Positions 249 through 28,670 of a stretch of DNA of 64,000 nucleotides are shown one piece after another. The notes under the pieces were generated by a model that was not told the DNA's origin, ran no database searches, and saw nothing but the letters and a program-made list of their open reading frames with translations. The DNA comes from an uncultured delta proteobacterium (GTDB taxonomy: Bacteria > Myxococcota_A > Polyangia > Fen-1088). Both the position numbers and the translations under genes were made by a program. Position 1 is the first letter of the stretch, and the number at the start of each line of letters is the position of its first letter. The stretch lies in assembly GCA_963796685.1 (NCBI GenBank), contig CAWCMR010000022.1:1-64000 (forward strand), in the 5' to 3' direction.

Positions 249-10637
<10,389 letters not shown>

Positions 10638-12209: not shown

Positions 12210-12461
12210 ATGCGACTGAACATCCCCCCCATCATTCCCTATGCCGTGGGCGCGCTGCTCGTGCTCTTCGGTACGCTGCGCGTGAAGTACCTCGGGGCAC
12301 CGCGCACGCCGCGCTTGACCGAGGAAGACAGCGAAACATCCACGAACCCCGCGCCCGTCCGTGGCAAGGAGCAGCGCCGTCACATCCGCATGGGCGTGGT
12401 GTGGGTGCTGCTCGGGCTCTTTCTGGTGATCTCGACCTACGTGCAGTCGCACCGTCGCTAG
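12210..12461 (+). CDS. Small two-TM membrane protein (83 aa)
   Basis: Starts 6 nt after rny with a GGA RBS; two hydrophobic segments flank a polar loop. Confidence 0.7.
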   Translation: MRLNIPPIIPYAVGALLVLFGTLRVKYLGAPRTPRLTEEDSETSTNPAPVRGKEQRRHIRMGVVWVLLGLFLVISTYVQSHRR

Positions 12462-12469
12462 AGGATCTG

Positions 12470-13369
12470 TCAGGCCTTGGGCCACAGCCAGGCGGCTCCG
12501 CGAACACCGCTGGAGTCGCCGTACTTGGCCTTCACGATGGGCGTCGTCACCTTGTCGGAGAACACGTACTTGGGCAGCACGAGGGGAACCTCGCGATAGA
12601 GGCGCGCGATGTTGGACACGCCGCCGCCCAGCACGACGAAATCGGGGTCCAGGACGTTGATGATGACGGCGAGCGCACGCGCCAGGCGGTCTTCGTAACG
12701 GACCATGGTGGCCAGTGCCGCCGCGTCGCCGCTCTCCGCCCGCGCGGCGATCTCCGGTGGCTTGAGATCCTGTCCCGTGGCCAGGCGATGGTCGCGCGAA
12801 AGGCTGGGGCCCGCGAGGAAAGACTCGTTGCAGCCAGGTCGGCCGCAGAAGCAGGGATGCCCGGGTCGTTCGTCGTCGCGTGGCCAGGCCAGCGGGTTGT
12901 GGCCCCATTCCCCGGCGATGGCGTGCTGGCCGGTGAGCAGGCGGCCGTGGACGACGATGCCGCCTCCCACGCCCGTCCCGATGATGACCCCGAACACCAC
13001 CTGGCCACCCGCACCGGCGCCATCGGTGGCTTCGGACAATACGAAGCAGTTGGCATCGTTGGCGACGCGAACCTCGCGCTCGAGGACACGGCTGAGATCT
13101 TTGTCCAGCGGATGTCCGATCAGCTCGACCGTGTTGGCGTTCTTGACCAGACCCGTGGGAGGCGAGATGGCGCCTGGAATGCCCACGCCGATCGTGCCTT
13201 TCTCGCCGTACGCCTTCTCGATGTCCGAAACCAACGAGGCGATGGCCTGCACGATGGTTGCATAGCTTCCCTTGGGTGTTGGGACGCGCAGGCGCTGTCG
13301 CTCGGCTCCCTCTTCATCAATGGCGATACCCTCAATTTTGGTGCCACCGAGATCGATTCCAATTCTCAT
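12470..13369 (-). CDS. mak: ROK-family sugar kinase (manno/fructokinase Mak-like)
   Basis: IGIDLGGTK ATP motif, ANDANC, GTGVGGG, GEWGH..CxCG..GCxE zinc site. Start taken at MRIGIDLG. Confidence 0.85.
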   Translation of the reverse strand: MRIGIDLGGTKIEGIAIDEEGAERQRLRVPTPKGSYATIVQAIASLVSDIEKAYGEKGTIGVGIPGAISPPTGLVKNANTVELIGHPLDKDLSRVLEREVRVANDANCFVLSEATDGAGAGGQVVFGVIIGTGVGGGIVVHGRLLTGQHAIAGEWGHNPLAWPRDDERPGHPCFCGRPGCNESFLAGPSLSRDHRLATGQDLKPPEIAARAESGDAAALATMVRYEDRLARALAVIINVLDPDFVVLGGGVSNIARLYREVPLVLPKYVFSDKVTTPIVKAKYGDSSGVRGAAWLWPKA

Positions 13370-13532
13370 TTTTGCCGTTACTGTACACTTGAGCCACGCG
13401 GTTTGGGCACCCACTAAAGTGTAATCTGATGAATTCACAGGCGTCGCAGGTCAAGTTACACTCGAAATCAACCGAGCGTCTGAGCGTCGGCGGGCTCGGT
13501 CCGACCTAACCCGCCGCGTGAGAGAGGACCGG

Positions 13533-14159
13533 ATGCCTAGGCACGCGTCATTCATCAACTCGACTGCGCATGGCGCAGCGCTGGTGGCACTGTTCCTTTG
13601 CGGCCTTTCCGCGTGCAGGAGAGCCTCTGCCCCGATGGTCCTGCAACAGCCCGTCAGGGCGCAACACGCGATGCGCTACAAGGGTGCCGAGGTCGGCTAT
13701 CGAAGCCAGGCCGGGTCGCCCATTGCACCGTCCGTGATTGCCGACGATCCGCCGCCAGTCCCAACCCAGCCGGCGCATGAGCAGCCGTCCAGGGCTCGGG
13801 CGACGCTCAACGGGGATCCGAACGGACTTACGCGCGACACCCTCAATCGGTCGATTCAAGGAGCTATGGGGTCGTTGGCCGCTTGCTTCTCCTCCCTGAC
13901 GCAAGATCCAATGGTGTCGGTTTCTTTCGAGGCGGATCCCAACGGCAGGCCCAGCCTAGTCCGCGTGGGAGGTGCGCCTCCGGACGCAGAGCACTGCATT
14001 AGAAGTGTGGTGCAGGACATTCGTTTTCCGACCTTCGATGGCAAAGGGGTGCAGGTCGACCTCCCGCTTTCCTTCCACCGTGTGACACGTCCAGCGCAGC
14101 AAGGAAATCCAGCCGGGGCGCAGCCTCCCACGGCTCCGCCGCTGTTCTTGGAACCTTAG
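13533..14159 (+). CDS. Lipoprotein with AgmX/PglI (TonB-C-like) C-terminal domain
   Basis: Lipobox LSAC, Pro-rich linker, C-terminal LAACF..V.V.F..DPNG...CI...V..IRFP pattern. Confidence 0.65.
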   Translation: MPRHASFINSTAHGAALVALFLCGLSACRRASAPMVLQQPVRAQHAMRYKGAEVGYRSQAGSPIAPSVIADDPPPVPTQPAHEQPSRARATLNGDPNGLTRDTLNRSIQGAMGSLAACFSSLTQDPMVSVSFEADPNGRPSLVRVGGAPPDAEHCIRSVVQDIRFPTFDGKGVQVDLPLSFHRVTRPAQQGNPAGAQPPTAPPLFLEP

Positions 14160-14246: not shown

Positions 14247-14440
14247 TAGAAGCGCATGCCGCGCTTGGCGCGGAACATGAACCATCGGTACGTCAGGTAA
14301 ACCGCTCCGCCCAAGGTCAGCAGCCCAAAAACCGGGGCGTGGTAGACGAACAGCGCTCCCGCACCGGCCCACGCTGAAAGGGCGAACAGGCCCTTCTTTT
14401 TGGCTTCCGCTTTGTCGCGCGACATCAGGCTCTGGGTCAT
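14246..14440 (-). CDS. Small two-TM membrane protein (64 aa)
   Basis: GAGAG RBS, two hydrophobic helices, basic C-terminal tail (FRAKRGMRF). Confidence 0.7.
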   Translation of the reverse strand: MTQSLMSRDKAEAKKKGLFALSAWAGAGALFVYHAPVFGLLTLGGAVYLTYRWFMFRAKRGMRF

Positions 14441-14564
14441 GGCGGTCTCTCGTCACCAGAATCATGTAGCCTGCTCGGCCTTGGCGCAAGATGCAAACGA
14501 GCCCGTGCAGGCCCATTGCACACGCCGCCGGACCCGTGGTATTTGCGGTGCAAAGGAGAACGCC

Positions 14565-14996
14565 ATGCGATTGCTGCTCTCGATCGTTTCAGTGTTCGGC
14601 TTGGTGACCTTTTTCTCACCAACAACCGAGGCAAAGCCCAAGAAGGCTGACTCCCAAGTAGAGGCCGAGCCAGCCGCCGCCGCCACGGAAAACAACGCGT
14701 GTGGGTGCTACCGGGACAAGGACGACAAGTGTCACTGCATCAAGGTGAGCAAGGCGAAGCTCAAGTGCCAGTGCGAAAACGACTGCGAGCCCCCGGAATG
14801 CGTGGCCAAGCGCCAGCACGATGAGGAGAAGGCGGCAGAGCTGGCCCTCAAGAAGGCGAAGGAAAGAGACAAGAAGGCGCAGGTAGAGGCCAAGAAGGCC
14901 CAAGCTCAGCGCGACAAGGAGAGAAAGGCCGAGGAGGCCAAGAAGGAAAAGGAAAAGGCGAAGGAGAACTCCGATCCGGCCTGGAAACTGGAGTAG
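14565..14996 (+). CDS. Secreted Cys-rich protein with Lys/Glu/Ala coiled-coil tail
   Basis: RBS AAGGAG, signal peptide ending TEA, CGC..CHC..CQC..C....C cluster, then K/E/A-rich helix. Confidence 0.75.
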   Translation: MRLLLSIVSVFGLVTFFSPTTEAKPKKADSQVEAEPAAAATENNACGCYRDKDDKCHCIKVSKAKLKCQCENDCEPPECVAKRQHDEEKAAELALKKAKERDKKAQVEAKKAQAQRDKERKAEEAKKEKEKAKENSDPAWKLE

Positions 14997-15056: not shown

Positions 15057-15098
15057 CAGGGATCGACGGATTGCGCCGTCGATCCCTGTTTTGATTTT
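15057..15098 (+). terminator. Intrinsic terminator
   Basis: Perfect 13-bp stem CAGGGATCGACGG / CCGTCGATCCCTG with 6-nt loop, followed by TTTTGATTTT. Confidence 0.8.
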
Positions 15099-15190: not shown

Positions 15191-16855
15191 ATGAAGAACG
15201 CAGGACTCGACAAAGATTCACTCCAGATGCTTCTCGATACCATCGGGTCGTTCGGCAAGCAGAAGCTGCCCGCCAAGGTTCGCCTCGATCTCGACGAGCG
15301 GGATGAGTTCCCGCTCGGGCTCATCGAAGAGCTTCTGGGACCCGAGATCGGCTTGCACCTGCTCTTCATCCCCGAGGAGCTGGGCGGCCTCGGCGGCTCG
15401 GCGTACGACGTCTATCGCGTGTCCGAGGACATGGCTCGCCTCGACCTTGGCGTGGCCACCGCGTTTCTCGCCATCTTTCTCGGCACCGACCCCATCGTCG
15501 TGGGCTCCACCGAAGAGCAACGCAAGCACTGGCTTCGCCGCATCGGCGACGAGGGCCTGATTGTCGCCTACGCCGTGACCGAGCCCCTGGCGGGCAGCGA
15601 GCTATCCGCCATCCGCACCAAGGCCGACCGGGTCATCGAGAACGGCGAGATCAAGGGCTACAAGATAAACGGCACCAAGCAATTCATCTCCAACGGCGGC
15701 TTCGCCCAACTCTATTCCGTGCTGGCCGCCGCTCCCGAAGGACCGACCTTTTTCCTGGTCGAGAAGGGCACCCCCGGGCTCGTGCCGGGCAAGCACGAAA
15801 ACAAGCACGGGATTCGCTCGTCGAACACCTCCCCGGTCACCTTCGAGGATGTGTTCGTGCCCAAGGAGAACCTCCTCGGCGGGGTCGAGGGCAAGGGCCT
15901 CATTCACGCCCAGTCGGTATTCGGCTTCACGCGTTTGATGGTGGCGGCGTTCGGCTTGGGTGGCGGCGTGCAGGCCATGCTCAAGGCCATTCGCTACTCG
16001 CGCGAGCGCGTGCAGGCCGGCTCCACCCTGGCCGAAAAGCAGGGCTACATGGACAAGCTCATCGTCCCCCATGTGGTCAAGCTGGAGGCCGCCCGCGCCT
16101 ATATCGAGGAGGTGGCGCGTCGCTTGGACGCCGGCGAGCCCGAGCTGCAAACCGAAGGCGCCATCGCCAAGCTCTTCGCCACCGAGGAGGGCAATGCCGC
16201 TGCCGACGCCGCGGTCCAGGCCCTGGGTGGGTACGGTTATACCAAGGAGTACGAGGTCGAGAAGGTTCGCAGAGACGTGCGCATCACGACCATCTACGAG
16301 GGGACGAGCGAGATCATGCAATGGACGGTGTCGCGCGATCGCTGGCGCGTCCACCTGCAAGAGCGCGGCGGCTTCTATCGCCGCATGGCCGAATCGCTGG
16401 ACAGCCTGCACCGCGAGGATGCCCAGGTAGGCGCCGACGTGGCGGCCCTGGCGGTGCGAGCCGTGCTCGAAACCACCGAGCGCTGCCGCGTCTCTCGCCT
16501 CACGCGCCACCAGCACGTGCTGTTTCAGCTCGGCGAGCTCATGACCCGCGCGGAAATCGCGGCCAATTTCGCCCACTACGCTGCCGGCCGTGGCGCCGCG
16601 AAGTACGAGCCCTTCTTCGCGCCCAAGGTGGTCAAGGACATGTCCCGGATCTGCGCGCGCGAGGCCGCGCTGGACGTGGTGGCAGGGGCTGTTCGCCTGG
16701 TGCGTGGCATGGACGCCGTGGACGACGCGGGCATGGCGGACTTCGAGCGTTCCCTGCAGACGCACGCTGTCTACGCTGCGGCCAAAGGGCTCATGGCCGA
16801 CATGGACACCGTCGCCAAAGCCATCGTGGAGCAAGACGCGGCGCGACCGCAGTGA
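15191..16855 (+). CDS. Acyl-CoA dehydrogenase with C-terminal extension
   Basis: AYAVTEPLAGSE, INGTKQFISN, KHGIRSSNT, QALGGYGY, IYEGTSEI (catalytic Glu); extra ~170-aa helical C-terminal domain. Confidence 0.92.
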   Translation: MKNAGLDKDSLQMLLDTIGSFGKQKLPAKVRLDLDERDEFPLGLIEELLGPEIGLHLLFIPEELGGLGGSAYDVYRVSEDMARLDLGVATAFLAIFLGTDPIVVGSTEEQRKHWLRRIGDEGLIVAYAVTEPLAGSELSAIRTKADRVIENGEIKGYKINGTKQFISNGGFAQLYSVLAAAPEGPTFFLVEKGTPGLVPGKHENKHGIRSSNTSPVTFEDVFVPKENLLGGVEGKGLIHAQSVFGFTRLMVAAFGLGGGVQAMLKAIRYSRERVQAGSTLAEKQGYMDKLIVPHVVKLEAARAYIEEVARRLDAGEPELQTEGAIAKLFATEEGNAAADAAVQALGGYGYTKEYEVEKVRRDVRITTIYEGTSEIMQWTVSRDRWRVHLQERGGFYRRMAESLDSLHREDAQVGADVAALAVRAVLETTERCRVSRLTRHQHVLFQLGELMTRAEIAANFAHYAAGRGAAKYEPFFAPKVVKDMSRICAREAALDVVAGAVRLVRGMDAVDDAGMADFERSLQTHAVYAAAKGLMADMDTVAKAIVEQDAARPQ

Positions 16856-16955
16856 CCTTCATACCCGAGAAGCAAGCGCAGACGAGCGGCGCGATCGGGC
16901 TGGACAACCCGCCTGGATCCGCTACCCGCGATCCAATCTGGAGGAGAAAAAGTAG

Positions 16956-19900
16956 ATGAGTAGTTCGACACGAGATCCGGCCGACCGAGCGGTCGCGGTG
17001 GTGGGCTTGGGCGCCATCTTGCCCGACGCCCCCGACGCACAGCACTTCTGGCAGAACGTGGTGGCCGGCCGGAGCTCGATCACGGATGTGACCCCCGAGC
17101 GTTGGAATGCCTCGGATTACTGGGATCCCGATCCCAAGGCACCTGGCAAGACCTATTCGAAGGTCGGTGGCTGGGTTCGAGGCATCACGTTCGAGTCGAC
17201 CAAGCTCAAGATTCCACCGCGCGTGGCCTCGGCCATGGACGAAGGTCAGAAGTGGGCACTTCTGTGCGCGGGCGAGGCCTTGCGCGATGCCGGCCACCCT
17301 GATCGTCCCCTCGACAGCGATTCGACCGCCGTGATCATCGGCAACGCCATGGGCGGCGAACGGCACTACGAGACCGTGCTGCGTCTTTCGTTTCCCGAGT
17401 ACGCCAGAGCGCTCTACGAAACCGCGGCCTTCAAGGGGCTGCCAGCCAGCGCGCGCGAGGCGATCCTGGCCGAGTTCGCCGGCGAAATCGCCCGGCGCTT
17501 GCCCGACACCACCGAAGACACCATGCCGGGCGAGCTGACCAACATCGTTGCCGGTCGCGTGGCCGCGGTCTACAACCTGCGCGGCCCCAATTTCACCACC
17601 GACGCCGCGTGCGCGTCGGCCCTGGCGGGCGTGCAGGCCGCCGTCGACAGCCTCGTCGACCACCACTACAACGTAGCCCTGACCGGCGGCATGGATCGCA
17701 ACATGGGCGCCACCACCTTCGTCAAGTTCAGCAAGATCGGCGCGCTCTCGCCCGACGGCTCGCGCCCCTATTCGGCTGGCGCAAACGGCTTCGTCATGGG
17801 CGAAGGTGGCGCCTTCTTCATTTGCAAGCGCCTGGAGGATGCCGAGAAGGCGGGCGACAAGATCTACGCGGTCATCCGCGGCGTGGGCGGAGCCAGCGAC
17901 GGCAAGGGCAAGGGCATCACCGCGCCCAACCCCATCGGGCAACGTGTGGCCATCCAGCGCGCCTGGAAACGCGCCGGGCTCGATCCGGCGACCATGACCC
18001 TGCTCGAAGGGCACGGCACCTCGACCCGCGTGGGCGACGTGTCCGAGATGGAAAGCGCGGCCAGCGTGTTGATGGAGGGCACCCCCATCAAGCACAAGAT
18101 CGCGCTCGGTTCGGTCAAGTCGCAGATCGGCCACCTCAAGAGCGCGGCCGGCGCCGCGGGTCTGCTCAAGGCGGTGCTGGCCTGCCATCACAAGATCCTG
18201 CCGCCGTCCATCAACTGCGACGTTCTCAGCCCGGCCATCCCGTTCGACAAGATTCCCTTCGAGGTCAACACCAAGGCGCGACCGTGGGAGCGTCCGTCGT
18301 TTGCGCCCCGGCGCTGCGGCGTCTCGGCCTTCGGCTTCGGCGGCACCAATTTCCATGTCGTGGTCGAGGAGTACGTGCCGGGCTTGCTGACCAGGCGACC
18401 GACCATGGTGCAGGTGCCGAGTGCTTCCACCGCCTCGTCGCCAGCCGGCGGTGCTCAGGTGGCGGGAGCAAGGCAGGGCACTGACGACCGGCCGACCATG
18501 CTCGGATTCATGCTCGCCCTGAGCGGCACCGATCCGGGGGCACTGCGTGCACAAGCCATCCAGGCCATGGCCGACGCCAAGGCCGGCAAGGTCCCCGACC
18601 GCACCCCGCCGGGGGCGCAGTTCCTTGCTGCGCCGGCCCGCTTGGTCATCGCCTTCGATGAAGCGGGCGATCTCGTCAAGAAGTGCGAGCTGACCATCGA
18701 GGCCCTGGACAAGAACGATGTCCGCAAGTGGCGGGTTCTGCAGACCAAGGGCATTCACCTCGGCCGCGGCCCGGCCGGCAAGGTCGCGTTTCTGTTCCCC
18801 GGGCAGGGCTCGCAGTACGTCAACATGCTCGCCGATGTGCCCGATCCCATCGTGCGCGAGACCTTCGCGGAGGCCGACCGCACCATGGAGCCCATTCTCG
18901 GGCGCCCGCTCACGAGCTACGTCTACAGGAACGCCAACGATGCGGCGGCCATGGAGGACGCCGAGGAGGCGCTCAAGGATACCACCATCTGCCAGCCGGC
19001 CATGGTGGCCACCGACATCGCGATCATGCGCATGCTGGGCAAGCACGGCGTGTTCCCCGATATGGTGATGGGGCACAGCTTGGGCGAGTGGGCGGCGGCG
19101 GTCGGCGCGCGCATGCTCAACTTCTCCGAGGCGCTGGTCGCGGTCAGCGCGCGGGCGCGGGCCATGGCGTCGGTATCGATCGGCGACAAGGGCAAGATGG
19201 CGTCGGTGCTCGGGCCGACCGACGAAATCGTGCGGCGCCTACCCGAGATCGGCGGCTACCTCACGCCGGCCAACATGAACAGCAAGAAGCAGACGGTGAT
19301 CGCCGGCGCCAGCGACGCCGTAGATCGTGCGGTCGATTATTTCAACAACCTGGGCATGACCGCGCAGATCATCCCCGTGTCGCACGCCTTCCACAGCAAG
19401 GTGGTCGCCCCGGCCGCGGACGCCCTGTACCGGACCATCTGCGAAATGCAGATTGCCCCGCCGAGCATTCCGCTGATTGGCAACATCGACGGCCAGCTCT
19501 ACCCCACGGACAACATGGAAACCATCAAACGGCGCTTGGCCGACCAGATGGCGTCGTCGGTCCAATTCGTCAAAGGTATCGAAACTTGCTACGGCGAGGG
19601 CGCGCGCATCTTTCTCGAAGTCGGCCCCAAGCGCGCTTTGCAAGCACTGGCCGAAAGCGACCTTGCGGACAAGCAGGACGTCCTTTGTCTATCCACCAAC
19701 CACCCCAAGCGAGGCGGCGTGCGCTCGTTCCACGATGCCATGTGTGGCCTCTACGCCGCGGGTATCCCCAGGCCGGAGCAGCTGTCTCGCCTCCCAGAGC
19801 TCCGCGCCGCCGCCGAAGGCACCAAGAGCGCGGTCCCCAGCGAAAACCCCACGTCAGCGAATGGAGCCCCCATCGTCATGAGCACGGATCGAACACGTCC

Positions 19901-22900
19901 AACCGCCACGGCCGGCCAGACCGACTACGAGAGTCTGGGACGACTTTTTGCGCGATTTCTCGATGAAGGCATGGCGCTCTACAAAGGCGGGGAAGCCGCC
20001 GCGCCCGCGCCCACCGCACAGGCGGGCCCCATCGTCATCTCCGGCGTGGGACTGGGCCTGCCCGGCGAGAGCCGCCGTGTCTTCGACGACGGCAACATCG
20101 ACCGCATCTTGGCCGGCGAATCGTTCATCGAGCCGGTGCCGCAGAAGCTGCGCGAGCGCATGCTGGGCAAGAACATCGTGCGCCTGCACAAACGCGAGCT
20201 CGGCGAGCCGAGCCTCGAGCCCATCGCGTCTGCAGACGAAGTCATCCGACTGGCCGGGCGCAAGGGCACCTTCGATTTGAACCAGGAGTTCGGTGTCGCC
20301 AAGGAGCGCACGGAGGTTTTCGATACCACCTCTGCGCTCGCCATCGCGGCGGGCATCGAAGCTTTGCGCGACGCCGGCATTCCGCTCGTGCGCAATTACC
20401 GGCGCACCACCACAGGCAGTTACCTGCCCGACCGCTGGCGCTTGCCACTGGCCATGGCCGACGAGACCGGGGTGATCTTCTCGTCGGCCTTCCCCGGCTT
20501 CGACAACATGGCACGGGAAATCACGCGTTTCTACGAGGCGCGCGAGCAGAAGACCGAGTTCCAGTTCGACCGGCGCTTCATCTTCCAGGTGTTGTCCATG
20601 GGTCACGCCCAGTTTGCCGAGATGCTCGGCATTCGCGGTCCCAACACCCAGGTCAATTCGGCCTGCGCCTCCACCACCACGGCCATCGCCATCGCCGAGG
20701 ACTGGATTCGTCTCGGCCGTTGTCGGCGCGTGATCGTGATCGGCGCCGACGAGCTCACCTCGGACAACCTCATGGAGTGGATGGGCGCGGGATTCCTTGC
20801 CACTGGCGCCGCCACCACCGAGAACGTGGTCGAGCGCGCGGCCCTGCCGTTCGATCGCCGCCGCCACGGCATGCTCATGGGCATGGGCGCGTGCGCACTG
20901 GTCGTCGAATCCCAGGATGCCGTCGCCGAGCGCGGAATGCGCGGCATGGTCGAGGTGCTGGGCACCGAAATCGCGAACAGCGCTTTCCATGGCTCGCGTC
21001 TCGACGTGGCCCATATCGAAGCCGTCATGGAGAGATTCGTGTCGACGGTCGAGCGCAAGCACGGGCTCGAACGCCACGCCATGGCCAAGGAGCTGGCCTT
21101 CATCTCCCATGAGACCTATACGCCGGCGCGTGGCGGCAGCGCCGCGGCCGAGGTGTTCGCCCTGCGCAAGACCTTCGGCGCGTCGGCCAACGACCTGGTC
21201 GTGGCCAACACCAAGGGCTTCACCGGGCACCCGATGGGTGTCGGCATCGAGGACGCCATGGCGGTCAAGATTCTGGAAAAGCAGATCGTGCCGCCGGTGC
21301 CCAATTTCAAAGAGCCCGATCCCGAGCTCGGCACGCTCAATCTCTCCAAGGGCGGACACTATCCGGTGCGCTTTGCCTTGCGCCTGGCCGCCGGCTTTGG
21401 CTCGCAGATCGCCATGTCGCTCTTCCGGCGCGTTCAGGGAGTCGAACAGCGCGTGGCCGACCGGGCGACCTACCAGCGCTGGTTGTCGGAGGTCTCCGGC
21501 TACGACAACCCCAGCGTCGAGGTTCAACAGCGGACCCTGCGTATCAAGGACGAGGGGCAGCCGCGGCGCGAGCCGGCGCCGTCGCGCTGGTTGACGGGTA
21601 CGGGGCCACGCGCGGCGTTTGTGGCGGCTCCGGTGGCGGTGACGGTTCCCGTGGCGGTGCCGGCCACGGCCACGGCCACGACCACGACCACGGCCAAGGG
21701 CACGGGCACGGGCTCTGCCGTGGGCACGGTAAGCGGTGAGGCGATTCTCGACAAGGTTCTCGGCATCGTGGCCGAGAAGACGGGCTATCCGCGCGACATG
21801 CTGGATCCCGATCTGGATCTCGAGGCGGATCTCGGCATCGACACGGTCAAGCAGGCCGAGGTGTTCGCGATGGTGCGCGAGACGTTCAACATTCCTCGCC
21901 AGGACAACCTGAAGCTGCGCGACTACCCGACGCTTCGCCATGTGGTTGGCTATGTGGAACAGAGCACGGGGGCAGTGGCTTCGGTACCTGCGGGGACTTC
22001 GGCCCCCATTCCCACCGTGCCTACCCCCTCTTCTACACCTTCGACGACGGCTCCGGCTGCCGGAGCTGCCGCAGATTCCGTTCTCGACAAGGTTCTCGGC
22101 ATCGTGGCCGAGAAGACGGGCTATCCGCGCGACATGCTGGATCCCGATCTGGATCTCGAGGCGGATCTCGGCATCGACACGGTCAAGCAGGCCGAGGTGT
22201 TCGCGATGGTGCGCGAGACGTTCAACATTCCTCGCCAGGACAACCTGAAGCTGCGCGACTACCCGACGCTTCGTCATGTGGTTGGCTACGTCGAGCAGAG
22301 CAGAGGCGCGGTGCCGGCTGCGGCCACGGTTTCGGAGCCGGCCACGGTTCCTGCCACCGCCACCGCCCCAGCCCCCGTGGCCGCCAGTGCCCCAGTCACC
22401 GCCACTATCCCGGCAAGCGGCATCGTCGCGAAGGTGCTGGCCATCGTGGCCGAAAAGACCGGCTACCCCAGCGATATGCTGGAGCTCGATCTCGATCTCG
22501 AGGCTGACCTCGGCATCGATACGGTCAAGCAGGCCGAGGTGTTCGCGATGGTGCGCGAAACGTTCAATATTCCTCGCCAGGACAACCTGAAGCTGCGCGA
22601 CTATCCGACGCTTCGTCACGTGATCGGTTACGTCGAGCAGAGCCAGGGCGGCACCACGGTCGCAACCGTGCCGGCTGCTTTGGTGGAAGTCGCGGTGCCG
22701 CCCGTCGCGCAGGCGACGGTTGCCCCATCCGCGGTGACGGTGGAACCAACGACTGCCCCCATCGCGGCCACTCCCATTGTTCCGCCGGCCGAGGCCGCGC
22801 CCCCGGCACCAGTGACCTCGGACAGCGATCCGATCGTCGCGAAGGTGCTCGCCATGGTGGCGGCCAAGACCGGCTATCCCAGCGATATGCTGGAGCTGGA

Positions 22901-25727
22901 TTTGGATCTGGAGGCCGACCTCGGCGTGGACACGGTCAAGCAGGCGGAGGTCTTCGCCATGGTGCGCGAGGAGTTCAACATCCCACGCAAGGACGACCTG
23001 AAGCTGCGCGACTATCCGACGCTTCGTCACGTGATCGGGTTCGTCAAGCAGAGCCTCGGTGCTCCGGATGCGGCGCCTGCGCCGGCCGTCGAAACCGTGC
23101 CGGATGCTGTGCCCGCGCCAGCGCGCGCCGCGGAGCCTTCGCCTGCACCGACGGCCGCCCCGCCCCCCGTGGCGATGGCCCCAGCCATCGTGGTGTCGGA
23201 AGCAAATCCGTTCGAAAGCGGTGTGCTTCGCCGTCCCGTGGTGACCCTGCGCCCGCCGCTCGCCGCCTGCAAGCACACGTCGGTGCGCCTGGAGAAAGGC
23301 AGCCGCGTGGTCGTGGTCACGGATCGCGACGGAGCCGGCCGTCTGCTTTGCGACGAGCTCGAACGTCGCGGGGTTCAGGTCCTGCGCATCGATGCTCGGC
23401 CCGAGCGCGGTGAAATCGAGAATGCCCTGCGCGAGTGGGCCGCCGCGGGTTCGACCACGGGCCTGTATTTTCTCGCCCCGCTCGACGCTTGCCCCTCGTT
23501 GCACGAGATGGATCTGGTCGAGTTCCGCAAACAGTACTGCGATCGTGTGCTGCTTCTGCACGGGGCCGTGCGCGGGCTCTACGATGCGCTCGCCAACCCT
23601 GGCACCTTCCTCATCACGGCAACCCGCATGGGCGGCCACCACGGCTACGGCCAAGGAGGCGCGCGCAATCCCATCGGCGGCGCCGTCGTCGGATTCACCA
23701 AGGCCACGAAACGCGAGCGGCCCGAGGCCCTGGTCAAGGCCGTGGACTTCCCCGAGGACATGCCGAGTGAAGTGGTGGTGCGCGCTCTGCTGGACGAGAC
23801 CGAGCGCGATCCGGGCGCCATCGAGATCGGGTACCAAGGTAACCTGCGCGTGACCGTGGGCGTGCAGCTCTTCACGGCCCCGCCCAGCGACGCCAAGACG
23901 CCCGTCTCCATGAATGCGAACGCCGTGTTCGCGGTCACCGGTGGCGCCGGCGCCATCACCGTGGCCATCGTGCGCGACCTGGCGGCCGCTTCGCGCGGCA
24001 CCTTCTACCTGCTCGATGCGCGCCAGATGCCGCCCGAGAGCGAGCGTCCCTTGCTCGAAAAGGTCATCAAGGATCGCGAGGGCGCCAAGCGCGAGGTGTT
24101 CGAGCGCCTGAAGGCCGAGAAGGGCCGCGCCACCCCGGCGCAGGTCGAGGAGAAGCTCTTCGATCTCGAACGGCAAGCCGGCATCCTCGAAGCCCTGCGT
24201 TCGGTGGAAGAGGCGGGAGGTCGCGCCTTCTACCGCCAGGTCGACGTGCTCGACGGCCACGCGGTCAAGGCCGTGGTGGAGAACATCCGCCAGCAAAGCG
24301 GCAAGCTCGACGTGGTTCTCCACGCCGCGGGCCTCGAACGCAGCCGCTCGCTCGACCGCAAGCCGGTCGAGGAATTCGATCTGGTCTTCCGCGTGAAGGC
24401 CGACGGGCTTTTCAATCTGATGGTGGCCACGCGCGACCTCGACGTCAAGGCCATGGTGGTCTTTTCCTCGGTGGCGGGGCGCTTCGGCAACGCGGGTCAG
24501 GCCGATTACAGCGCGGGCAACGACTTCATGTGCAAGGCAGTCTCGTGGTGGGCGGCGTCGCGGCCGAGCTCGCTCGGCATCGCCCTCGATTGGACCGCGT
24601 GGGGCGGCATCGGCATGGCCACGCGCGGAAGCATCCCCGAGATCATGAAGCGCGCCGGGATCGATATGCTCGATCCGGCCGAGGGCTTGCCCGTCATTCG
24701 CAACGCGCTTCTCGCCGGCTACTCGGGCGAGGCGGTGGTGGGCCGTCGTCTCGGCATCCTGGTCACGCCTCTCGACGCGGACGGGGGGCTCGAAGTCGAC
24801 GGCAGCCTGCAGGCTCGCGCCAAGGACAAATCGCTGCCCTTGCCTTTCGCGCAAGTCAGCCACCATCTGCACGAGGGTCTGGTGGCCGAGATGCGGCTCG
24901 ATCCCAAGGTCGAGCCCTTCCTCCACGATCACGCCATCGACGGCATTCCCGTCCTGCCCGGCGTGATGGGCATCGAGACCTTCGCCGAGGCGGCCTGGTT
25001 GCTCGTGCCCAGCCATCACGTCGTGGGCCTGGAGAACCTGCGCTTCCTCGCGCCCATGAAGTACTACCGCAACGAGCCGCGGGCAGCCATCGTGCGGGCG
25101 CGGGCGGTGCTGGGCGAGCCCGGCCTCGTGCGCGTCCACACCACGCTGTCGTCGGTGCAGACCATCGTGGGACGCGAACCCGAAGAGAAGTTGCACTTCT
25201 CGGGCGTGGTCGTGCTGGCGCCGACGGCGCTGGAAACGCAGCACGTGCAGGCCTTCAATCGTACCCAACCCGAAATCGGGCGCGAGGCCATCTACCGCGT
25301 GTACTTCCACGGCCCCGCCTACCGCGTGCTCGATCGGGTCGAGAGCGCGGGCCAGAACCAGGTCATCGGTTGCATGACCGCGAATCTGCCCCTCGATACC
25401 ACCAACCCCACCCACGCCAGCCTGGTGGGACCGCGTCTCATCGAGCTGTGCTTCCAGACCGCAGGCGTGTGGGAGATCGGCAAGACCGGGCAGCTTGCCC
25501 TGCCGGCCGCGGTCGATCGGGTGATCGTGCGCGATCCCTCGGCGGGCAGCGGTCCGCTGGTTGCCGAAGTGACCGCCCACCCGAGCGCCGACGGACTCTC
25601 GTTCAGCGCCCGCGTGCGCGACGGCGAAGGCAAGGTTCACGTCGAGCTCGTCGGGTATCGCACCTCGCGCATGCCGAATACGCTGCCCGAAGACGAAGCG
25701 GGCCCGTTCCGCAACGTGGTCGTCTGA
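16956..25727 (+). CDS. Iterative type I PKS / PfaA-like lipid synthase, KS-AT-KS-ACPx4-KR-DH (2,923 aa)
   Basis: KS1 DAACAS/EGHGT/QIGHLK; AT FPGQG, GHSLG, HAFHS; KS2 NSACAS/SHETYT/FTGHPMG; four LEADLG(I/V)DTVKQ ACPs; KR TGGAGAI..YSAGN; DH HAIDGIPVLPG..HGPAY..ELCFQ. RBS GGAGGAG. Confidence 0.93.
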   Translation: MSSSTRDPADRAVAVVGLGAILPDAPDAQHFWQNVVAGRSSITDVTPERWNASDYWDPDPKAPGKTYSKVGGWVRGITFESTKLKIPPRVASAMDEGQKWALLCAGEALRDAGHPDRPLDSDSTAVIIGNAMGGERHYETVLRLSFPEYARALYETAAFKGLPASAREAILAEFAGEIARRLPDTTEDTMPGELTNIVAGRVAAVYNLRGPNFTTDAACASALAGVQAAVDSLVDHHYNVALTGGMDRNMGATTFVKFSKIGALSPDGSRPYSAGANGFVMGEGGAFFICKRLEDAEKAGDKIYAVIRGVGGASDGKGKGITAPNPIGQRVAIQRAWKRAGLDPATMTLLEGHGTSTRVGDVSEMESAASVLMEGTPIKHKIALGSVKSQIGHLKSAAGAAGLLKAVLACHHKILPPSINCDVLSPAIPFDKIPFEVNTKARPWERPSFAPRRCGVSAFGFGGTNFHVVVEEYVPGLLTRRPTMVQVPSASTASSPAGGAQVAGARQGTDDRPTMLGFMLALSGTDPGALRAQAIQAMADAKAGKVPDRTPPGAQFLAAPARLVIAFDEAGDLVKKCELTIEALDKNDVRKWRVLQTKGIHLGRGPAGKVAFLFPGQGSQYVNMLADVPDPIVRETFAEADRTMEPILGRPLTSYVYRNANDAAAMEDAEEALKDTTICQPAMVATDIAIMRMLGKHGVFPDMVMGHSLGEWAAAVGARMLNFSEALVAVSARARAMASVSIGDKGKMASVLGPTDEIVRRLPEIGGYLTPANMNSKKQTVIAGASDAVDRAVDYFNNLGMTAQIIPVSHAFHSKVVAPAADALYRTICEMQIAPPSIPLIGNIDGQLYPTDNMETIKRRLADQMASSVQFVKGIETCYGEGARIFLEVGPKRALQALAESDLADKQDVLCLSTNHPKRGGVRSFHDAMCGLYAAGIPRPEQLSRLPELRAAAEGTKSAVPSENPTSANGAPIVMSTDRTRPTATAGQTDYESLGRLFARFLDEGMALYKGGEAAAPAPTAQAGPIVISGVGLGLPGESRRVFDDGNIDRILAGESFIEPVPQKLRERMLGKNIVRLHKRELGEPSLEPIASADEVIRLAGRKGTFDLNQEFGVAKERTEVFDTTSALAIAAGIEALRDAGIPLVRNYRRTTTGSYLPDRWRLPLAMADETGVIFSSAFPGFDNMAREITRFYEAREQKTEFQFDRRFIFQVLSMGHAQFAEMLGIRGPNTQVNSACASTTTAIAIAEDWIRLGRCRRVIVIGADELTSDNLMEWMGAGFLATGAATTENVVERAALPFDRRRHGMLMGMGACALVVESQDAVAERGMRGMVEVLGTEIANSAFHGSRLDVAHIEAVMERFVSTVERKHGLERHAMAKELAFISHETYTPARGGSAAAEVFALRKTFGASANDLVVANTKGFTGHPMGVGIEDAMAVKILEKQIVPPVPNFKEPDPELGTLNLSKGGHYPVRFALRLAAGFGSQIAMSLFRRVQGVEQRVADRATYQRWLSEVSGYDNPSVEVQQRTLRIKDEGQPRREPAPSRWLTGTGPRAAFVAAPVAVTVPVAVPATATATTTTTAKGTGTGSAVGTVSGEAILDKVLGIVAEKTGYPRDMLDPDLDLEADLGIDTVKQAEVFAMVRETFNIPRQDNLKLRDYPTLRHVVGYVEQSTGAVASVPAGTSAPIPTVPTPSSTPSTTAPAAGAAADSVLDKVLGIVAEKTGYPRDMLDPDLDLEADLGIDTVKQAEVFAMVRETFNIPRQDNLKLRDYPTLRHVVGYVEQSRGAVPAAATVSEPATVPATATAPAPVAASAPVTATIPASGIVAKVLAIVAEKTGYPSDMLELDLDLEADLGIDTVKQAEVFAMVRETFNIPRQDNLKLRDYPTLRHVIGYVEQSQGGTTVATVPAALVEVAVPPVAQATVAPSAVTVEPTTAPIAATPIVPPAEAAPPAPVTSDSDPIVAKVLAMVAAKTGYPSDMLELDLDLEADLGVDTVKQAEVFAMVREEFNIPRKDDLKLRDYPTLRHVIGFVKQSLGAPDAAPAPAVETVPDAVPAPARAAEPSPAPTAAPPPVAMAPAIVVSEANPFESGVLRRPVVTLRPPLAACKHTSVRLEKGSRVVVVTDRDGAGRLLCDELERRGVQVLRIDARPERGEIENALREWAAAGSTTGLYFLAPLDACPSLHEMDLVEFRKQYCDRVLLLHGAVRGLYDALANPGTFLITATRMGGHHGYGQGGARNPIGGAVVGFTKATKRERPEALVKAVDFPEDMPSEVVVRALLDETERDPGAIEIGYQGNLRVTVGVQLFTAPPSDAKTPVSMNANAVFAVTGGAGAITVAIVRDLAAASRGTFYLLDARQMPPESERPLLEKVIKDREGAKREVFERLKAEKGRATPAQVEEKLFDLERQAGILEALRSVEEAGGRAFYRQVDVLDGHAVKAVVENIRQQSGKLDVVLHAAGLERSRSLDRKPVEEFDLVFRVKADGLFNLMVATRDLDVKAMVVFSSVAGRFGNAGQADYSAGNDFMCKAVSWWAASRPSSLGIALDWTAWGGIGMATRGSIPEIMKRAGIDMLDPAEGLPVIRNALLAGYSGEAVVGRRLGILVTPLDADGGLEVDGSLQARAKDKSLPLPFAQVSHHLHEGLVAEMRLDPKVEPFLHDHAIDGIPVLPGVMGIETFAEAAWLLVPSHHVVGLENLRFLAPMKYYRNEPRAAIVRARAVLGEPGLVRVHTTLSSVQTIVGREPEEKLHFSGVVVLAPTALETQHVQAFNRTQPEIGREAIYRVYFHGPAYRVLDRVESAGQNQVIGCMTANLPLDTTNPTHASLVGPRLIELCFQTAGVWEIGKTGQLALPAAVDRVIVRDPSAGSGPLVAEVTAHPSADGLSFSARVRDGEGKVHVELVGYRTSRMPNTLPEDEAGPFRNVVV
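21745..23050 (+). repeat. Four tandem ACP-coding repeats separated by Ala/Pro/Thr/Val linkers
   Basis: 21745-21937 is identical to 22081-22273 (193 bp); copies 3 and 4 (~22425, ~22835) are more diverged. Confidence 0.9.
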
Positions 25728-26425
25728 TGTTCCGCTACCGTCTGGTCCATGCCGGCGAGTTTCCGTCGCTTGTGCAAGGCCAGGCGTGGCCGGATCTGCT
25801 CAGCCCGCGCGAGGAGAAGATGCTCGCCCGGCTCGGCCACGCGCCGAGAAGGCGCAAGTGGCTGCTGGGCCGGACCGCGGCCAAGCGTCTCGTGCGCGAT
25901 ATGCTGGGCGAGGAGCAGGTGCCGGAGAAGGAAATCAGCGTCCTCAACCAACCCTCGGGTGAGCCCTTCGTGCTCCTCGAAGGCAAGGGTGGCTGGGAAT
26001 ATCCCATCTCGATTTCGCATCGGAGCGAGGTCGGCATGGCCGCCGCACCGCTGGAGCGAACTGCGCGCATCGGTGCCGACGTGGAGACCGTGGAACCGCG
26101 CGATCCCGCGTTGGTGAGACAGTTCTACACCGAGGGTGAAGCCCAAGTCGTCGAGGCCGCGGGCCGCGATCGCGACGAGAGCGTGGCCCGCATCTGGAGC
26201 GCCAAGGAGGCGGTCTTGAAGCTCCTCGGCCTCGGCTTGCGCCTCGATACGCGCGGCGTGCTGGTGAACCTGGCCGGCGAGGCATTTGCCGGATGTCCCG
26301 AGGGCTGGCAGCCCGTCGGCGTGCGTGTGGTCGCCGAGCTGCCACGCCAGAGCATGCTCGACAACTTGCGGGTGGTGTGGCGGCGCGAGGCGGGCCACGT
26401 GCTGACAGTGGCGGTGGCTGGGTAG
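25727..26425 (+). CDS. Sfp-type 4'-phosphopantetheinyl transferase
   Basis: TGATG overlap with the PKS stop; RRRKWLLGR, ISISH, IGADVE, WSAKEAVLK motifs. Confidence 0.9.
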   Translation: MFRYRLVHAGEFPSLVQGQAWPDLLSPREEKMLARLGHAPRRRKWLLGRTAAKRLVRDMLGEEQVPEKEISVLNQPSGEPFVLLEGKGGWEYPISISHRSEVGMAAAPLERTARIGADVETVEPRDPALVRQFYTEGEAQVVEAAGRDRDESVARIWSAKEAVLKLLGLGLRLDTRGVLVNLAGEAFAGCPEGWQPVGVRVVAELPRQSMLDNLRVVWRREAGHVLTVAVAG

Positions 26426-26455: not shown

Positions 26456-27796
26456 CTACCGCGCGAAGAGATCCTCGTAGCGCCCCGGTTTGCCCTGGGT
26501 CCACGGATGGTAGCTGTTGATGAAGTCCACGCGCTCGCCGATGGGCGGATGGCTGGCTCGGAAGAGCTTGTAAAGCAGGCCAGGGCGGGGCACGGTCAGG
26601 TTCTGCTGCTGGAGGGCCACGAAGGCGGTGGCGGCGGCGCGGTTGTCGTGGGTGAGCTCGAGACCGAAGCGGTCGGCCTCGTGCTCGTGGTAGCGCGAGA
26701 AAGCCAGCGCAGCGGGCGTGATGACCAGCGAGAACAAGGTCAAGAGCAACATGAGCAGGGGCAGCGAAGCGACGTCCGAGAGCTGATGCAAGCCCATGCG
26801 GCCACCGAAGTGGCCGAGGACGAAGCCGGACAATCGATGGGCACCGAACAGGCCGACGAAGGTGAGCACCGTCGATAGAATCACGCTGGTCCATACGTGG
26901 CCGAGCACGTAGTGGCCGAGCTCGTGGGCGACCACGTAGCGGACCTGTGCCGGCGACAGTCGGGCGATGAGCGTATCCCACAGCACGATGCGTTTGCTGC
27001 CGCCCACGCCGGTGACGTAGGCGTTGACCTTGGCGGTGTCGACGCTCTTGTCGACCTCGAACACGCGTGCGCCTTCGACCCCTGCGCGTCTGGCCTCGGC
27101 CAGTACCTCGGATTCGAGCACCTTGTCTTTCATGGGCCCGAACTTGTTGAAGAGCGGCGCGATCCACAGCGGCGTGACGACGAGGGTAAGGATGTAGAAG
27201 GGCAGGGCCAGAGCGCTGGTCCACAGCCACCAATGCTGGGGGCTCTTGGCCAGCAGGAGATAGGGTACCCACAGCACGAGCACGCCGACGAGCAGGCCGA
27301 TGCCGAGACCTTTGGCCTGATCGCTGGCCCACTTGGAAAAGCGCTGGGTGGAAAGGCCGTAGGCGTGCTCGCGCGCAAAGCCGACGTAGAACGACAGCGG
27401 CAGCTCGACGACGAAGAGCAGCACCGACAACAGCACCAGGTAGATGGCCAAGGTCGGATAGAAACGGCCACCCGTGACCTGGTTGGCCAAGGTGCGCAGC
27501 CGGGCCGAGAGCCCGGTGAAGAGCAGGAGCAAGGGAAGGGCGATCGATAACCCTTGCTCGACGGCCCAGAGGATATTGTTGCCGCGGTGATAACGCAGGG
27601 CCTTTTCCGACGGGGCGGGCACCTCGACGGGGGCGTCGCTTGCCGCGGTGCTGGCCTCGACCTTGTGGACGACGGGTGGCGGCGAGGGGGCGGCAACTGC
27701 GGGCTGGTCGTCGGGAAGCACGGCCTTCCCGGCGGCGAAGCTCCATAGACCCGTGATGGCCGCAAGGCCGAGCGCGGTCCCGAGCATGGTGGGCAT
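26456..27796 (-). CDS. M48 family (Ste24-like) membrane zinc metallopeptidase
   Basis: Multiple TM helices, NAYVTG, VAHELGH, SRYHEHEADRFG, SHPPIGERV. Confidence 0.9.
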   Translation of the reverse strand: MPTMLGTALGLAAITGLWSFAAGKAVLPDDQPAVAAPSPPPVVHKVEASTAASDAPVEVPAPSEKALRYHRGNNILWAVEQGLSIALPLLLLFTGLSARLRTLANQVTGGRFYPTLAIYLVLLSVLLFVVELPLSFYVGFAREHAYGLSTQRFSKWASDQAKGLGIGLLVGVLVLWVPYLLLAKSPQHWWLWTSALALPFYILTLVVTPLWIAPLFNKFGPMKDKVLESEVLAEARRAGVEGARVFEVDKSVDTAKVNAYVTGVGGSKRIVLWDTLIARLSPAQVRYVVAHELGHYVLGHVWTSVILSTVLTFVGLFGAHRLSGFVLGHFGGRMGLHQLSDVASLPLLMLLLTLFSLVITPAALAFSRYHEHEADRFGLELTHDNRAAATAFVALQQQNLTVPRPGLLYKLFRASHPPIGERVDFINSYHPWTQGKPGRYEDLFAR

Positions 27797-27881
27797 GGGG
27801 AGACTATAGCGCACGGGATGGGCACCCGACCGGACGCGGAAATCGGACCCGACCCATGTTGAAGGTTGCCCACGATCTGCC

Positions 27882-28670
27882 ATGTTTGCAGGTGTGGCTC
27901 GCCTCCTTCATGCCAGCACCGAAGATCCGCGCCCTTGTTCGTATCTGCCGGACATCGCGGCCTCGCTCGAGCACCGGGTGATGTTGGACGTTTCGCCCGA
28001 GGAGGTGGACGAGCTCTTGCGCCGCGGATGGCGTCACTTCGGCCCGGGTTGGTTCCGCCCGGCCTGCGGCGGATGCCAGGCATGCCTCTCCACGCGCATC
28101 GTGGTGGACGCTTTTTCTCCGAGTCGCAGCCAGCGCCGCGTACAGCGTCTGGCCAGCCGGTTGCGCCCCCGGATTGGCAAGCCCATCATCGACGAGGCGC
28201 GCTTGGATCTGTTCCACGCCTGGCAGCACGACCGCGTGCAAGCGCGCGGCTGGGAAATGTCGGACCTTTCCGTGCAGGACTACTTCATGCGCTTCGCGTT
28301 CCCGGCGCGATTTGCGCTGGAAGTCGCCTATTACGACCAAGCTGCCGACGACCGCCTGGTCATGATTTCGATTTGCGACAAGACACCGCAGGCGTGGAGC
28401 GCCATCTTCTGCTTCTACGATCCGGCCTACGCGCGTATCTCGCCTGGGATCGCCAACATTCTCAGCCTCGTCGAGCTTGCACGCGCCACGTCGCGACCCT
28501 ACGTCTACCTTGGCTATTGCGTCTTGGCCTGCCAGTCGCTGCGCTACAAGGCCGCCTTTCACCCCCAGGAGCTTCTGATTGGATTGCCCGGCGACGACGA
28601 AACGCCGCGTTGGGAGCGCATCGCGCCGCCGGCCGGACCTGCCTCGCGATTCGAGCCGCGTGGTGGCTGA
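27882..28670 (+). CDS. ate: Ate/Bpt-type aminoacyl-tRNA-protein transferase (N-degron pathway)
   Basis: PCSYLP, GWRHFG..FRPACGGCQAC, FYDP, YVYLGY, YKAAF.PQE motifs. Confidence 0.88.
   Translation: MFAGVARLLHASTEDPRPCSYLPDIAASLEHRVMLDVSPEEVDELLRRGWRHFGPGWFRPACGGCQACLSTRIVVDAFSPSRSQRRVQRLASRLRPRIGKPIIDEARLDLFHAWQHDRVQARGWEMSDLSVQDYFMRFAFPARFALEVAYYDQAADDRLVMISICDKTPQAWSAIFCFYDPAYARISPGIANILSLVELARATSRPYVYLGYCVLACQSLRYKAAFHPQELLIGLPGDDETPRWERIAPPAGPASRFEPRGG

Follow-up and report, generated by a model that had tools for sequence, protein, structure and literature searches.

The stretch of DNA considered here (the window) is 64,000 nucleotides of an uncultured delta proteobacterium of the GTDB lineage Myxococcota_A, Polyangia, Fen-1088 (GenBank assembly GCA_963796685.1, contig CAWCMR010000022.1, positions 1 to 64,000). 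At 15191-26425 it encodes, in the same orientation, an acyl-CoA dehydrogenase homolog (ACAD), a PfaA-like synthase with ketosynthase (KS), acyltransferase (AT), acyl carrier protein (ACP), ketoreductase (KR) and dehydratase (DH) domains, and a 4'-phosphopantetheinyl transferase (PPTase). Among the forms of a widespread operon for an iterative type I fatty-acid-like synthase, this set of three represents the smallest, found in Myxococcota. The genes, and the features that bound them, are as follows.

15057-15098, plus strand: intrinsic terminator that closes the upstream unit (perfect 13-bp stem, 6-nt loop, TTTTGATTTT tail; read from the sequence)
15191-16855, plus strand: ACAD, a VLCAD-type flavoprotein of 554 amino acids (aa) (Pfam, NCBIfam and PDB sequence matches, AF2 model, synteny)
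16956-25727, plus strand: iterative PfaA-like type I synthase, 2923 aa, KS1-AT-KS2-ACP x4-KR-DH (Pfam, NCBIfam, alignment)
25727-26425, plus strand: Sfp-type PPTase, 232 aa (Pfam, NCBIfam and PDB sequence matches)
26456-27883, minus strand: M48 peptidase gene, convergent with the cluster and 30 nt past the PPTase gene

This layout agrees with an earlier reading of the window (the original prediction), which had described three co-oriented genes between a strong upstream terminator and a convergent downstream gene. A consensus terminator scan picked up the inner part of the hairpin at 15068-15085. The ATG start of the ACAD gene is preceded by a GGAGA ribosome-binding site, and the ATG of the PPTase gene overlaps the synthase stop codon (TGATG). 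No enoyl reductase (ER), thioesterase (TE), PfaB, PfaC, PfaD, electron transfer flavoprotein (ETF), acetyl-CoA carboxylase (ACC) or fab gene was found in the whole 64-kb window, which extends the earlier observation that ER, TE and pfaB/C/D genes are missing nearby.

The domains of the synthase were called by piecewise scans with Pfam and NCBIfam models, and 17 full-length synthases were aligned (alignment A1). A profile of 17 full-length synthases, scanned against one genome per species, matched at least 600 stretches and gave at least 582 confirmed relatives; the locus counts given throughout cover the best 80 of these (L001-L080). The domains in the window, with their catalytic residues, are as follows.

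16986-18377, plus strand: KS1, residues 11-474, with Cys219, His353 and His393
18789-19682, plus strand: AT, residues 612-909, with Ser708 in GHSLG and a HAFH motif
20028-21440, plus strand: KS2, a FabF-like second ketosynthase, residues about 1025-1495, with Cys1237-His1385-His1425
21729-23063, plus strand: four tandem ACPs, residues about 1592-2036, with Thr1630, Thr1742, Thr1856 and Thr1993
23925-24605, plus strand: KR, residues 2324-2550, with Ser2504, Tyr2518 and Asn2522
24852-25682, plus strand: DH of the PKS-type double-hotdog kind, residues 2633-2909, with His2659 in HxxxGxxxxP, Glu2830 and Gln2834

The catalytic residues of the synthase are kept in all loci where the respective region is present: the Cys/His/His of KS1 in 80/80 loci, the Ser of the AT in 73/73, and, for KS2, the Cys in 66/66 and each His in 62/62. 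Cys1237, His1385 and His1425 of KS2 are also invariant in the 17-sequence alignment, and the best PDB relatives of KS2 in a sequence search are FabF enzymes. Judged by these residues, KS2 is a true ketosynthase, and the synthase has two catalytically competent KS domains in one chain. A chain-length factor (CLF) or a KSQ domain was considered for KS2 and rejected, given the retention of the Cys in all 66 loci. We take the HAFH motif of the AT to be a malonyl-specific signature. The best NCBIfam model for four of five synthase pieces is TIGR02813 PfaA (405.6, 178.8, 245 and 156.3 bits against a cut-off of 1010, with pieces of the protein scanned rather than the whole). The PPTase carries the PF01648 ACPS domain, with weak matches to the HetI and AcpT models and to the Sfp structures 1qr0 and 4mrt (E = 8e-6).

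An ER domain was found in no member of the synthase family, and the synthase of the window also lacks a TE domain. Because KR and DH are intact and there is no ER domain, the synthase would halt at an enoyl thioester in each round. Such a synthase might be left without any enoyl reduction, and would then make a polyene or a hydroxylated or unsaturated chain in the manner of enediyne PKSE-type enzymes, with the ACAD and its ETF tailoring the released product, or some of the cycles, at the CoA level. The ER-less KS-AT-ACP-KR-DH set is that of polyene-forming iterative polyketide synthases (PKSs); no conserved TE or release enzyme lies nearby, and the core of the ACAD resembles acyl-CoA enzymes. 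We nevertheless hold this reading to be unlikely, given how the ACAD is distributed among the relatives of the synthase.

The ACAD contains the Pfam domains PF02771, PF02770 and PF00441 (N, M and C), a weak second C-terminal Acyl-CoA_dh_1 repeat, and an extra C-terminal helical domain of about 150 aa in which the basic residues R433, R439, H442, R486 and R490 are family-invariant. Its catalytic Glu370, in TIYEGT, is intact, as had been noted earlier for the IYEGT motif, and is kept in 75/75 loci. An AF2 model built from a 30-row alignment (pLDDT 89.8, pTM 0.91) matches over its full length the five-domain, dimer-type structures 2z1q and 3owa, VLCAD and ACAD9 (TMq 0.75-0.82), and 380-aa ACADs match it over the core only; as modelled, the VLCAD-type fold suits long chains. 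The top NCBIfam models are the acryloyl-CoA reductase AcrC (237 bits, cut-off 640), cyclohexanecarbonyl-CoA dehydrogenase and Bacillus FadE, all scoring far below their cut-offs. The list of PDB sequence matches includes the reductive enzymes Bcd (5ol2_C, 4l1f) and CarC (6fah_C), as well as the prolyl-ACP dehydrogenase 4irn. A predicted complex of the ACAD with ACP4 scored 0.31 against a mark of 0.32, and weighs neither for nor against binding.

A homolog of this ACAD (49-90% identity, tblastn; full or end-truncated) is encoded on the same strand directly upstream of the synthase in 75 of the 80 loci. Two of the remaining five (L061 and L080) have <300 nt of upstream DNA and were excluded as untestable, and the other three (L031, L039 and L054) have 5.7-10 kb of upstream DNA and no ACAD. 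The ACAD and synthase matches are separated by 23-592 nt (median 92 nt), and by <=200 nt in 66 of the 71 loci in which the gap could be measured. At L048 the synthase match covers only the C-terminal half, with the ACAD 5 kb upstream of it, which is consistent with the usual order. The 80 loci come from Myxococcota, Chloroflexota, Acidobacteriota, Actinomycetota and Binatia, together with metagenome-assembled genomes (MAGs) labelled Pseudomonadota, Bacteroidota or delta proteobacterium, and the ACAD is conserved upstream of the synthase across at least six phylum-level groups (Myxococcota, Chloroflexota, Acidobacteriota, Actinomycetota, Binatia and Pseudomonadota-labelled MAGs). This is the outcome of the synteny comparison that the original prediction had proposed, and the same gene order in 75/78 testable loci indicates that the pairing is not due to chance.

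The PPTase also belongs to this conserved set: a homolog was found downstream by tblastn in 50/80 loci, and by clustering of open reading frames (ORFs) in 45/47 loci with at least 7.5 kb of downstream DNA. The two misses in the clustering are L041, which has a tblastn match, and L036, where the match to the synthase is truncated. A search with the KS2 region gave >4000 proteins, the best 120 of which belong to Myxococcota/Deltaproteobacteria MAGs and to Chloroflexota (Roseiflexus, Kouleothrix, Chloroploca, Anaerolineae and Caldilineae); relatives longer than about 2500 aa nearly all carry the same domain families, and many of the shorter matches are partial.

Patristic distances for the ACAD and for the KS1-AT region are strongly correlated over 58 shared loci (r = 0.95, with 0/999 Mantel permutations as high), and the agreement of the two trees extends to taxonomically odd placements. 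Relative to three other ACADs encoded at these loci, those linked to the synthase make up a single clade. Among 1.84 billion representative sequences (clustered at 50% identity), the ACAD matched five full-length clusters at 47-55% identity (493-615 bits), and the next full-length ACADs stand at 37-41% identity and <=341 bits; this drop from 493 to 341 bits indicates that the synthase-linked ACADs are a discrete subfamily rather than a generic β-oxidation enzyme. A search for fusions of ACAD and synthase returned nine long predicted proteins with both domain sets (P0243-P0251), two of which (P0243 and P0244) seem to be cleanly fused in frame, through linkers of 57 and 8 aa. That the ACAD might be an ordinary β-oxidation gene standing beside the synthase by accident could be argued from the abundance of ACADs in these phyla and from the lack of an ETF gene in the window; set against adjacency in 75/78 testable loci across phyla at a median gap of 92 nt, a single ACAD clade, a tree that mirrors that of the synthase and a clear step in similarity down to the next ACAD families, this explanation is very improbable and effectively refuted. 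The original prediction had named, as speaking against itself, an ACAD that is unconserved beside the synthase and clusters with β-oxidation ACADs; the ACAD found here is conserved in that position, separates as a clade of its own and has evolved together with the synthase.

The three loci that lack the ACAD encode a PfaD-type FMN enoyl reductase in its stead, in each case convergent after the PPTase gene.

L031, 15027-16649, minus strand: PfaD-type FMN enoyl reductase gene
L039, 19329-20990, minus strand: PfaD-type FMN enoyl reductase gene
L054, 19249-20826, minus strand: PfaD-type FMN enoyl reductase gene

The protein of L039 (Bellilinea) has 553 aa, with the domains PfaD_N, NMO and FabD_helical_ins, and its gene follows directly after that of the PPTase; a PlsC-like gene upstream at this locus lies outside the shared neighbour families. 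When searched by tblastn, the L039 reductase matched only L039, L031 (86% identity) and L054 (74%), which are exactly the three ACAD-less loci, and no match was found in the other 77/80 loci or in the window. The synthases of these three loci have the architecture, Thr-type ACPs and catalytic residues of the family, and form one clade that groups with the Myxococcota clade of the window (SH-like support 97; midpoint root, both branches long). The ACAD and the PfaD-type ER are mutually exclusive partners of one synthase family. Since a reductase replaces the ACAD where the latter is missing, enoyl reduction is favoured over desaturation as the role of the ACAD. The original prediction had left open whether the ACAD supplies the missing enoyl reduction or desaturates the starter or product; synteny, co-evolution and the exchange with PfaD together argue for the former. 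The same exclusivity implies that an ER is integral to the system, and with the tight spacing and co-evolution of ACAD and synthase it speaks against a polyene-forming synthase.

An oxidative ACAD would be an acyl-ACP or acyl-CoA desaturase that introduces or shifts a double bond in the starter, in an intermediate or in the finished chain, like MbtN or TcsD, with its electrons passing via ETF and EtfD to menaquinone and with a housekeeping FabI, FabK or FabV providing any saturation of the chain in trans. The intact catalytic Glu fits such an enzyme, and ACAD folds that act on carrier-bound acyl groups are known (the prolyl-ACP dehydrogenase 4irn in the PDB list, and an MbtN acyl-ACP dehydrogenase model in NCBIfam). 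Desaturation at the 2,3-position would, however, be redundant, because KR and DH already give a 2-enoyl product in each round; there is no ER in the operon to supply a saturated substrate; and the replacement in the three ACAD-less loci is a reductase of the PfaD type, no oxidase. We regard the desaturase as improbable.

The original prediction had called the cluster self-contained. This description does not hold for the family, since relatives add genes for ETF, an EtfD-like protein and ACC, none of which is in the window. Operon forms were derived from de novo clustering of the ORFs of the 80 loci, with the clusters annotated using Pfam and NCBIfam. The Myxococcota close to the window (L001-L004) have only ACAD-synthase-PPTase. 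In the Chloroflexota form these three genes are followed by separate genes for a carboxyltransferase (CT, 515 aa), a biotin carboxylase (BC) and a biotin carboxyl carrier protein (BCCP). Acidobacteriota, Actinomycetota, Binatia and some "delta" MAGs have the order FeS protein-EtfB-EtfA-ACAD-synthase, then a single-chain ACC and the PPTase; the ACC of Acidobacteriota and Actinomycetota, between synthase and PPTase, is a eukaryote-like single chain of about 1880 aa (BC-BCCP-central-CT). Of the 47 loci with at least 7.5 kb of downstream DNA, 34 have ACC as part of the operon (for example L055:17103-22733, L015:11127-16802 and L010:19920-22969). The in-operon ACC points to a bulk anabolic pathway, which speaks against the desaturase, and, together with tandem ACPs, it is a hallmark of the lipid-type Pfa and Hgl synthases as described by Shulse and Allen (2011; PMC3098273), which speaks against a polyene product.

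ETF genes adjoin the ACAD gene in 21/65 loci with at least 4 kb of upstream DNA, distributed as Acidobacteriota 13/18, Actinomycetota 3/5, Binatia 1/1, Chloroflexota 2/33, Myxococcota 1/5, Pseudomonadota-labelled 1/1 and "delta" 0/2. An EtfD-like FeS protein is encoded in 17 of these 21 loci; it has about 700 aa, roughly four N-terminal hydrophobic segments, two 4Fe-4S CxxCxxCxxxC motifs and CCG domains, and matches PDB 9ojn_A, an 'iron-sulfur-binding reductase', at E = 2e-83. Its architecture is presumably that of membrane ETF:menaquinone oxidoreductases (mycobacterial EtfD, syntroph DUF224). The FeS protein, EtfB and EtfA genes stand directly upstream of the ACAD gene at, for example, L055:2465-6420, L060:4346-8264 and L042:4472-8279; Solirubrobacterales and Anaeromyxobacter loci encode ETF on the other strand. 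AcrB and AcrA are among the top NCBIfam matches for the ETF subunits of the related loci. Just ahead of the synthase-linked ACAD, two loci of Ardenticatenaceae-type Chloroflexota (L029:4196-7770 and L056:4190-7778) also encode EtfB, EtfA and a second ACAD, which is Bcd/AcrC-like and 403 aa long. A gene for a TE, acyltransferase, glycosyltransferase or other release or tailoring enzyme that is common beyond single lineages was not found in the 80 loci. As ETF is absent from the window, the ETF or other electron donor of the window's ACAD must be encoded elsewhere in the genome.

On this comparative evidence, the ACAD is probably the trans-acting ER of a type I fatty-acid synthase (FAS)-like cycle, fed with electrons via ETF. 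In such a cycle the PPTase would arm the four tandem ACPs, the AT would load malonyl units, KS1 and KS2 would extend the chain, and KR and DH would convert each β-keto group to a trans-2-enoyl thioester. The two KS domains may split the chain-length range between them, by analogy with polyunsaturated fatty acid (PUFA) synthases. We infer that the VLCAD-type ACAD encoded upstream runs reductively, like Bcd, AcrC and CarC, and saturates the enoyl intermediate, which would probably be ACP-bound. Its electrons would come from ETF, itself reduced from the menaquinol pool via the EtfD-like membrane FeS protein or by another system; alternatively, NADH could be the reductant of ETF, in the manner of bifurcating systems. 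Bcd-EtfAB, AcrABC and CarCDE are ACAD-fold enoyl-CoA reductases, and the potentials of the couples concerned are about -10 mV for enoyl/acyl thioester, about -74 mV for menaquinone and -320 mV for NADH. As the enoyl/acyl couple lies above menaquinone, electron flow from menaquinol through ETF and ACAD to the enoyl group would be mildly downhill; to our knowledge, all of the phyla concerned use menaquinone. The irreversible decarboxylative condensation would pull this flow forward. A long acyl chain, saturated for the most part, is the probable product, and it would be released without a TE.

Several observations weigh against this interpretation. ACAD, ETF and EtfD together constitute the classical oxidative chain of β-oxidation, which also speaks for a desaturase. 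Neither ETF nor the EtfD-like protein is encoded in the window, in its four nearest relatives or in 31/33 Chloroflexota loci. EtfB is closest to the non-bifurcating Methylophilus ETF (1o94_C), and EtfA to bifurcating ones (5ol2_A, 7koe_B), so that the two subunits disagree as to the type of ETF. The core of the ACAD is like that of ordinary acyl-CoA dehydrogenases, with MCAD as the top PDB match (2e-61) and bacterial ACADs also among the closest, and the ACAD sequence does not settle whether the substrate is ACP-bound or CoA-bound. The exchange of ACAD for PfaD counts as a single evolutionary event, because the three loci form one lineage (Anaerolineaceae), and there the gene for the PfaD-type ER is on the opposite strand. 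Fusions of ACAD and synthase are few, and those other than the two seemingly clean ones lose either the alignment of the ACAD C-terminus or KS1, partly resembling frameshifted or chimeric calls. All locus counts come from the best 80 of at least 582 relatives, and the case for the ACAD as ER is drawn from comparative genomics.

The synthase and PPTase correspond to a known class. Shulse and Allen (2011; PMC3098273) described a Type R "secondary lipid synthase" consisting of one pfaA homolog with the order KS-MAT-CLF-ACP(3-6)-KR and, behind it, a PPTase. They listed it for Koribacter, where an ACC gene stands between the two, and for Solibacter, Elusimicrobium and Roseiflexus. The window shares this arrangement (KS1-AT-KS2-ACP4-KR, here with DH, and a PPTase directly downstream), and the ISISH motif of its PPTase fits the hShxH given there; the label 'CLF' does not suit it, as KS2 keeps Cys-His-His. 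With regard to the Type R grouping of KS domains, full-length relatives of the same architecture, 45-54% identical over the best aligned segment, occur in Roseiflexus sp. and in Solibacteraceae and Korobacteraceae MAGs (these standing in for the five genomes named in the paper), and the loci retrieved from these groups have exactly the Type R layout. The word 'dehydrogenase' is absent from PMC3098273, so that an ACAD goes unmentioned there for Type R; the paper likewise makes no mention of ETF, an EtfD-like protein, a C-terminal DH, a PfaD variant or Thr in the ACPs. The earlier description of the pathway as uncharacterised applies to its product, given in that paper as not known in 2011, and not to the synthase and PPTase, which had been catalogued. 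A literature search found no later work on the Type R cluster, its product or an ACAD or ETF partner.

The Pfa PUFA synthases share with the operon a PfaA-like KS-AT-tandem ACP-KR-DH megasynthase, a dedicated PPTase and, in three family members, a PfaD-type ER. They differ in that PfaB and PfaC (KS-CLF plus FabA-type DH/isomerase domains) are neither in the window nor conserved in the 80 loci, so that the operon lacks the machinery to form cis double bonds. In addition, the PfaA-like protein here includes a second KS, the role of the ER apparently falls to the ACAD, and the ACPs carry Thr rather than Ser. The Bcd-EtfAB, AcrABC and CarCDE systems likewise pair an ACAD-fold flavoprotein with EtfAB, and theirs reduces an enoyl thioester physiologically; 5ol2, 4l1f and 6fah appear in the lists of PDB matches for the ACAD and ETF subunits. 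However, Bcd, AcrC and CarC are tetrameric proteins of about 380 aa that act on short CoA esters in fermentation, whereas the present ACAD is a 554-aa VLCAD-type protein beside a biosynthetic megasynthase, and the ETF of its relatives comes with an EtfD-like protein. The mycobacterial FadE-EtfBA-EtfD chain and VLCAD/ACAD9 belong to the same protein families and have the same five-domain ACAD fold; they are catabolic and unlinked to synthases, in contrast to an operon with ACC, synthase and PPTase. The heterocyst glycolipid (Hgl) and Ars phenolic-lipid FAS/PKS systems also have iterative synthases of the Pfa-like kind, which according to PMC3098273 produce the long and mostly saturated chains of specialised lipids; they differ in being multi-gene systems with other reductive partners, for which no ACAD or ETF partner is described.

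The carrier domains of the synthase depart from those of other systems at the attachment site itself. All four ACPs of the window have Thr at the position of the phosphopantetheine Ser, within the motif DLG[IV]DTVKQAE and with no Ser nearby. The related loci have Thr in 224/224 ACP matches across 60 loci (228 domains with those of the window), and this residue is invariant in the ACP alignment. HMMER alignments place it on the phosphopantetheine Ser of the ACPs of PigH, CurA and Streptomyces coelicolor. Examined as carrier proteins, four stretches match the fold family PF00550, and the conserved Ser of (D/G)xDS is lacking. A literature search found no report of a natural Thr carrier protein, and none is otherwise known to us, which is not proof of absence. 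It is possible that the co-inherited PPTase modifies the ACP Thr, which would explain why a dedicated PPTase is retained in the operon; it is also possible that Thr-type ACP domains work differently. The ACPs are strongly acidic, with DLDLDLEADLG ahead of the attachment site, and might meet the basic residues in the C-terminal domain of the ACAD. The DNA that encodes them (21745-23066) is a 233-nt direct repeat in four copies that are 79-100% identical; the 97% DNA identity between copies 1 and 2 points to a recent duplication or to gene conversion. Related loci have one to six ACP matches, with some of the low counts due to synthases cut by a contig end.

The rest of the 64-kb window contains no other lipid-related gene, and no tRNA was found in it. 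GC content is high throughout (0.62-0.72); that of the cluster (0.66-0.68) resembles its flanks, and a signal of horizontal transfer was looked for and rejected. Three ORFs between the RNase Y gene and the terminator (12401-13417, 13518-14159 and 14400-14996, the last with a tail rich in Lys and Glu) have no Pfam or NCBIfam match, show synteny with no relatives other than the nearest Myxococcota (L001-L004), and are probably not part of the cluster. Upstream of RNase Y, 359-10637 encodes two TPR-repeat proteins of very large size (listed as 1978 and 1497 aa, with overlapping ORF calls).

A more far-reaching proposal, which we put forward tentatively and consider clearly less likely than the ER role of the ACAD, is that the operon represents a new kind of type I FAS, in which a quinol-wired flavoprotein ER (VLCAD-type ACAD, ETF and EtfD-like protein) is combined with phosphopantetheine carried on Thr, the latter explaining the PPTase; where ACC is also encoded (Chloroflexota, Acidobacteriota and Actinomycetota), such a synthase may even be a major or primary source of acyl chains. 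As far as the literature was searched, the features that are new are the obligatory ACAD partner, the ETF, EtfD-like and ACC companions, the exclusivity of ACAD and PfaD, the true KS in place of a 'CLF', and the Thr carrier site.

An orphan since 2011, the Type R synthase is nevertheless very common, with at least 582 loci in species-representative genomes, including phyla dominant in soil and sludge (Acidobacteriota, Chloroflexota, Actinomycetota and Myxococcota). With the ACAD, and in many relatives ETF, the EtfD-like protein and ACC, as parts of the operon, the missing fourth reaction of the elongation cycle would be supplied, and ACAD, synthase and PPTase would make up a minimal three-gene set for heterologous expression. 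The Thr of the ACPs, if modified, would represent a new post-translational carrier chemistry and possibly an orthogonal ACP/PPTase pair for engineering. For the bacteria that encode this operon, the prediction is a fatty-acid synthesis paid for by quinol- or ETF-derived, not NAD(P)H-derived, electrons.

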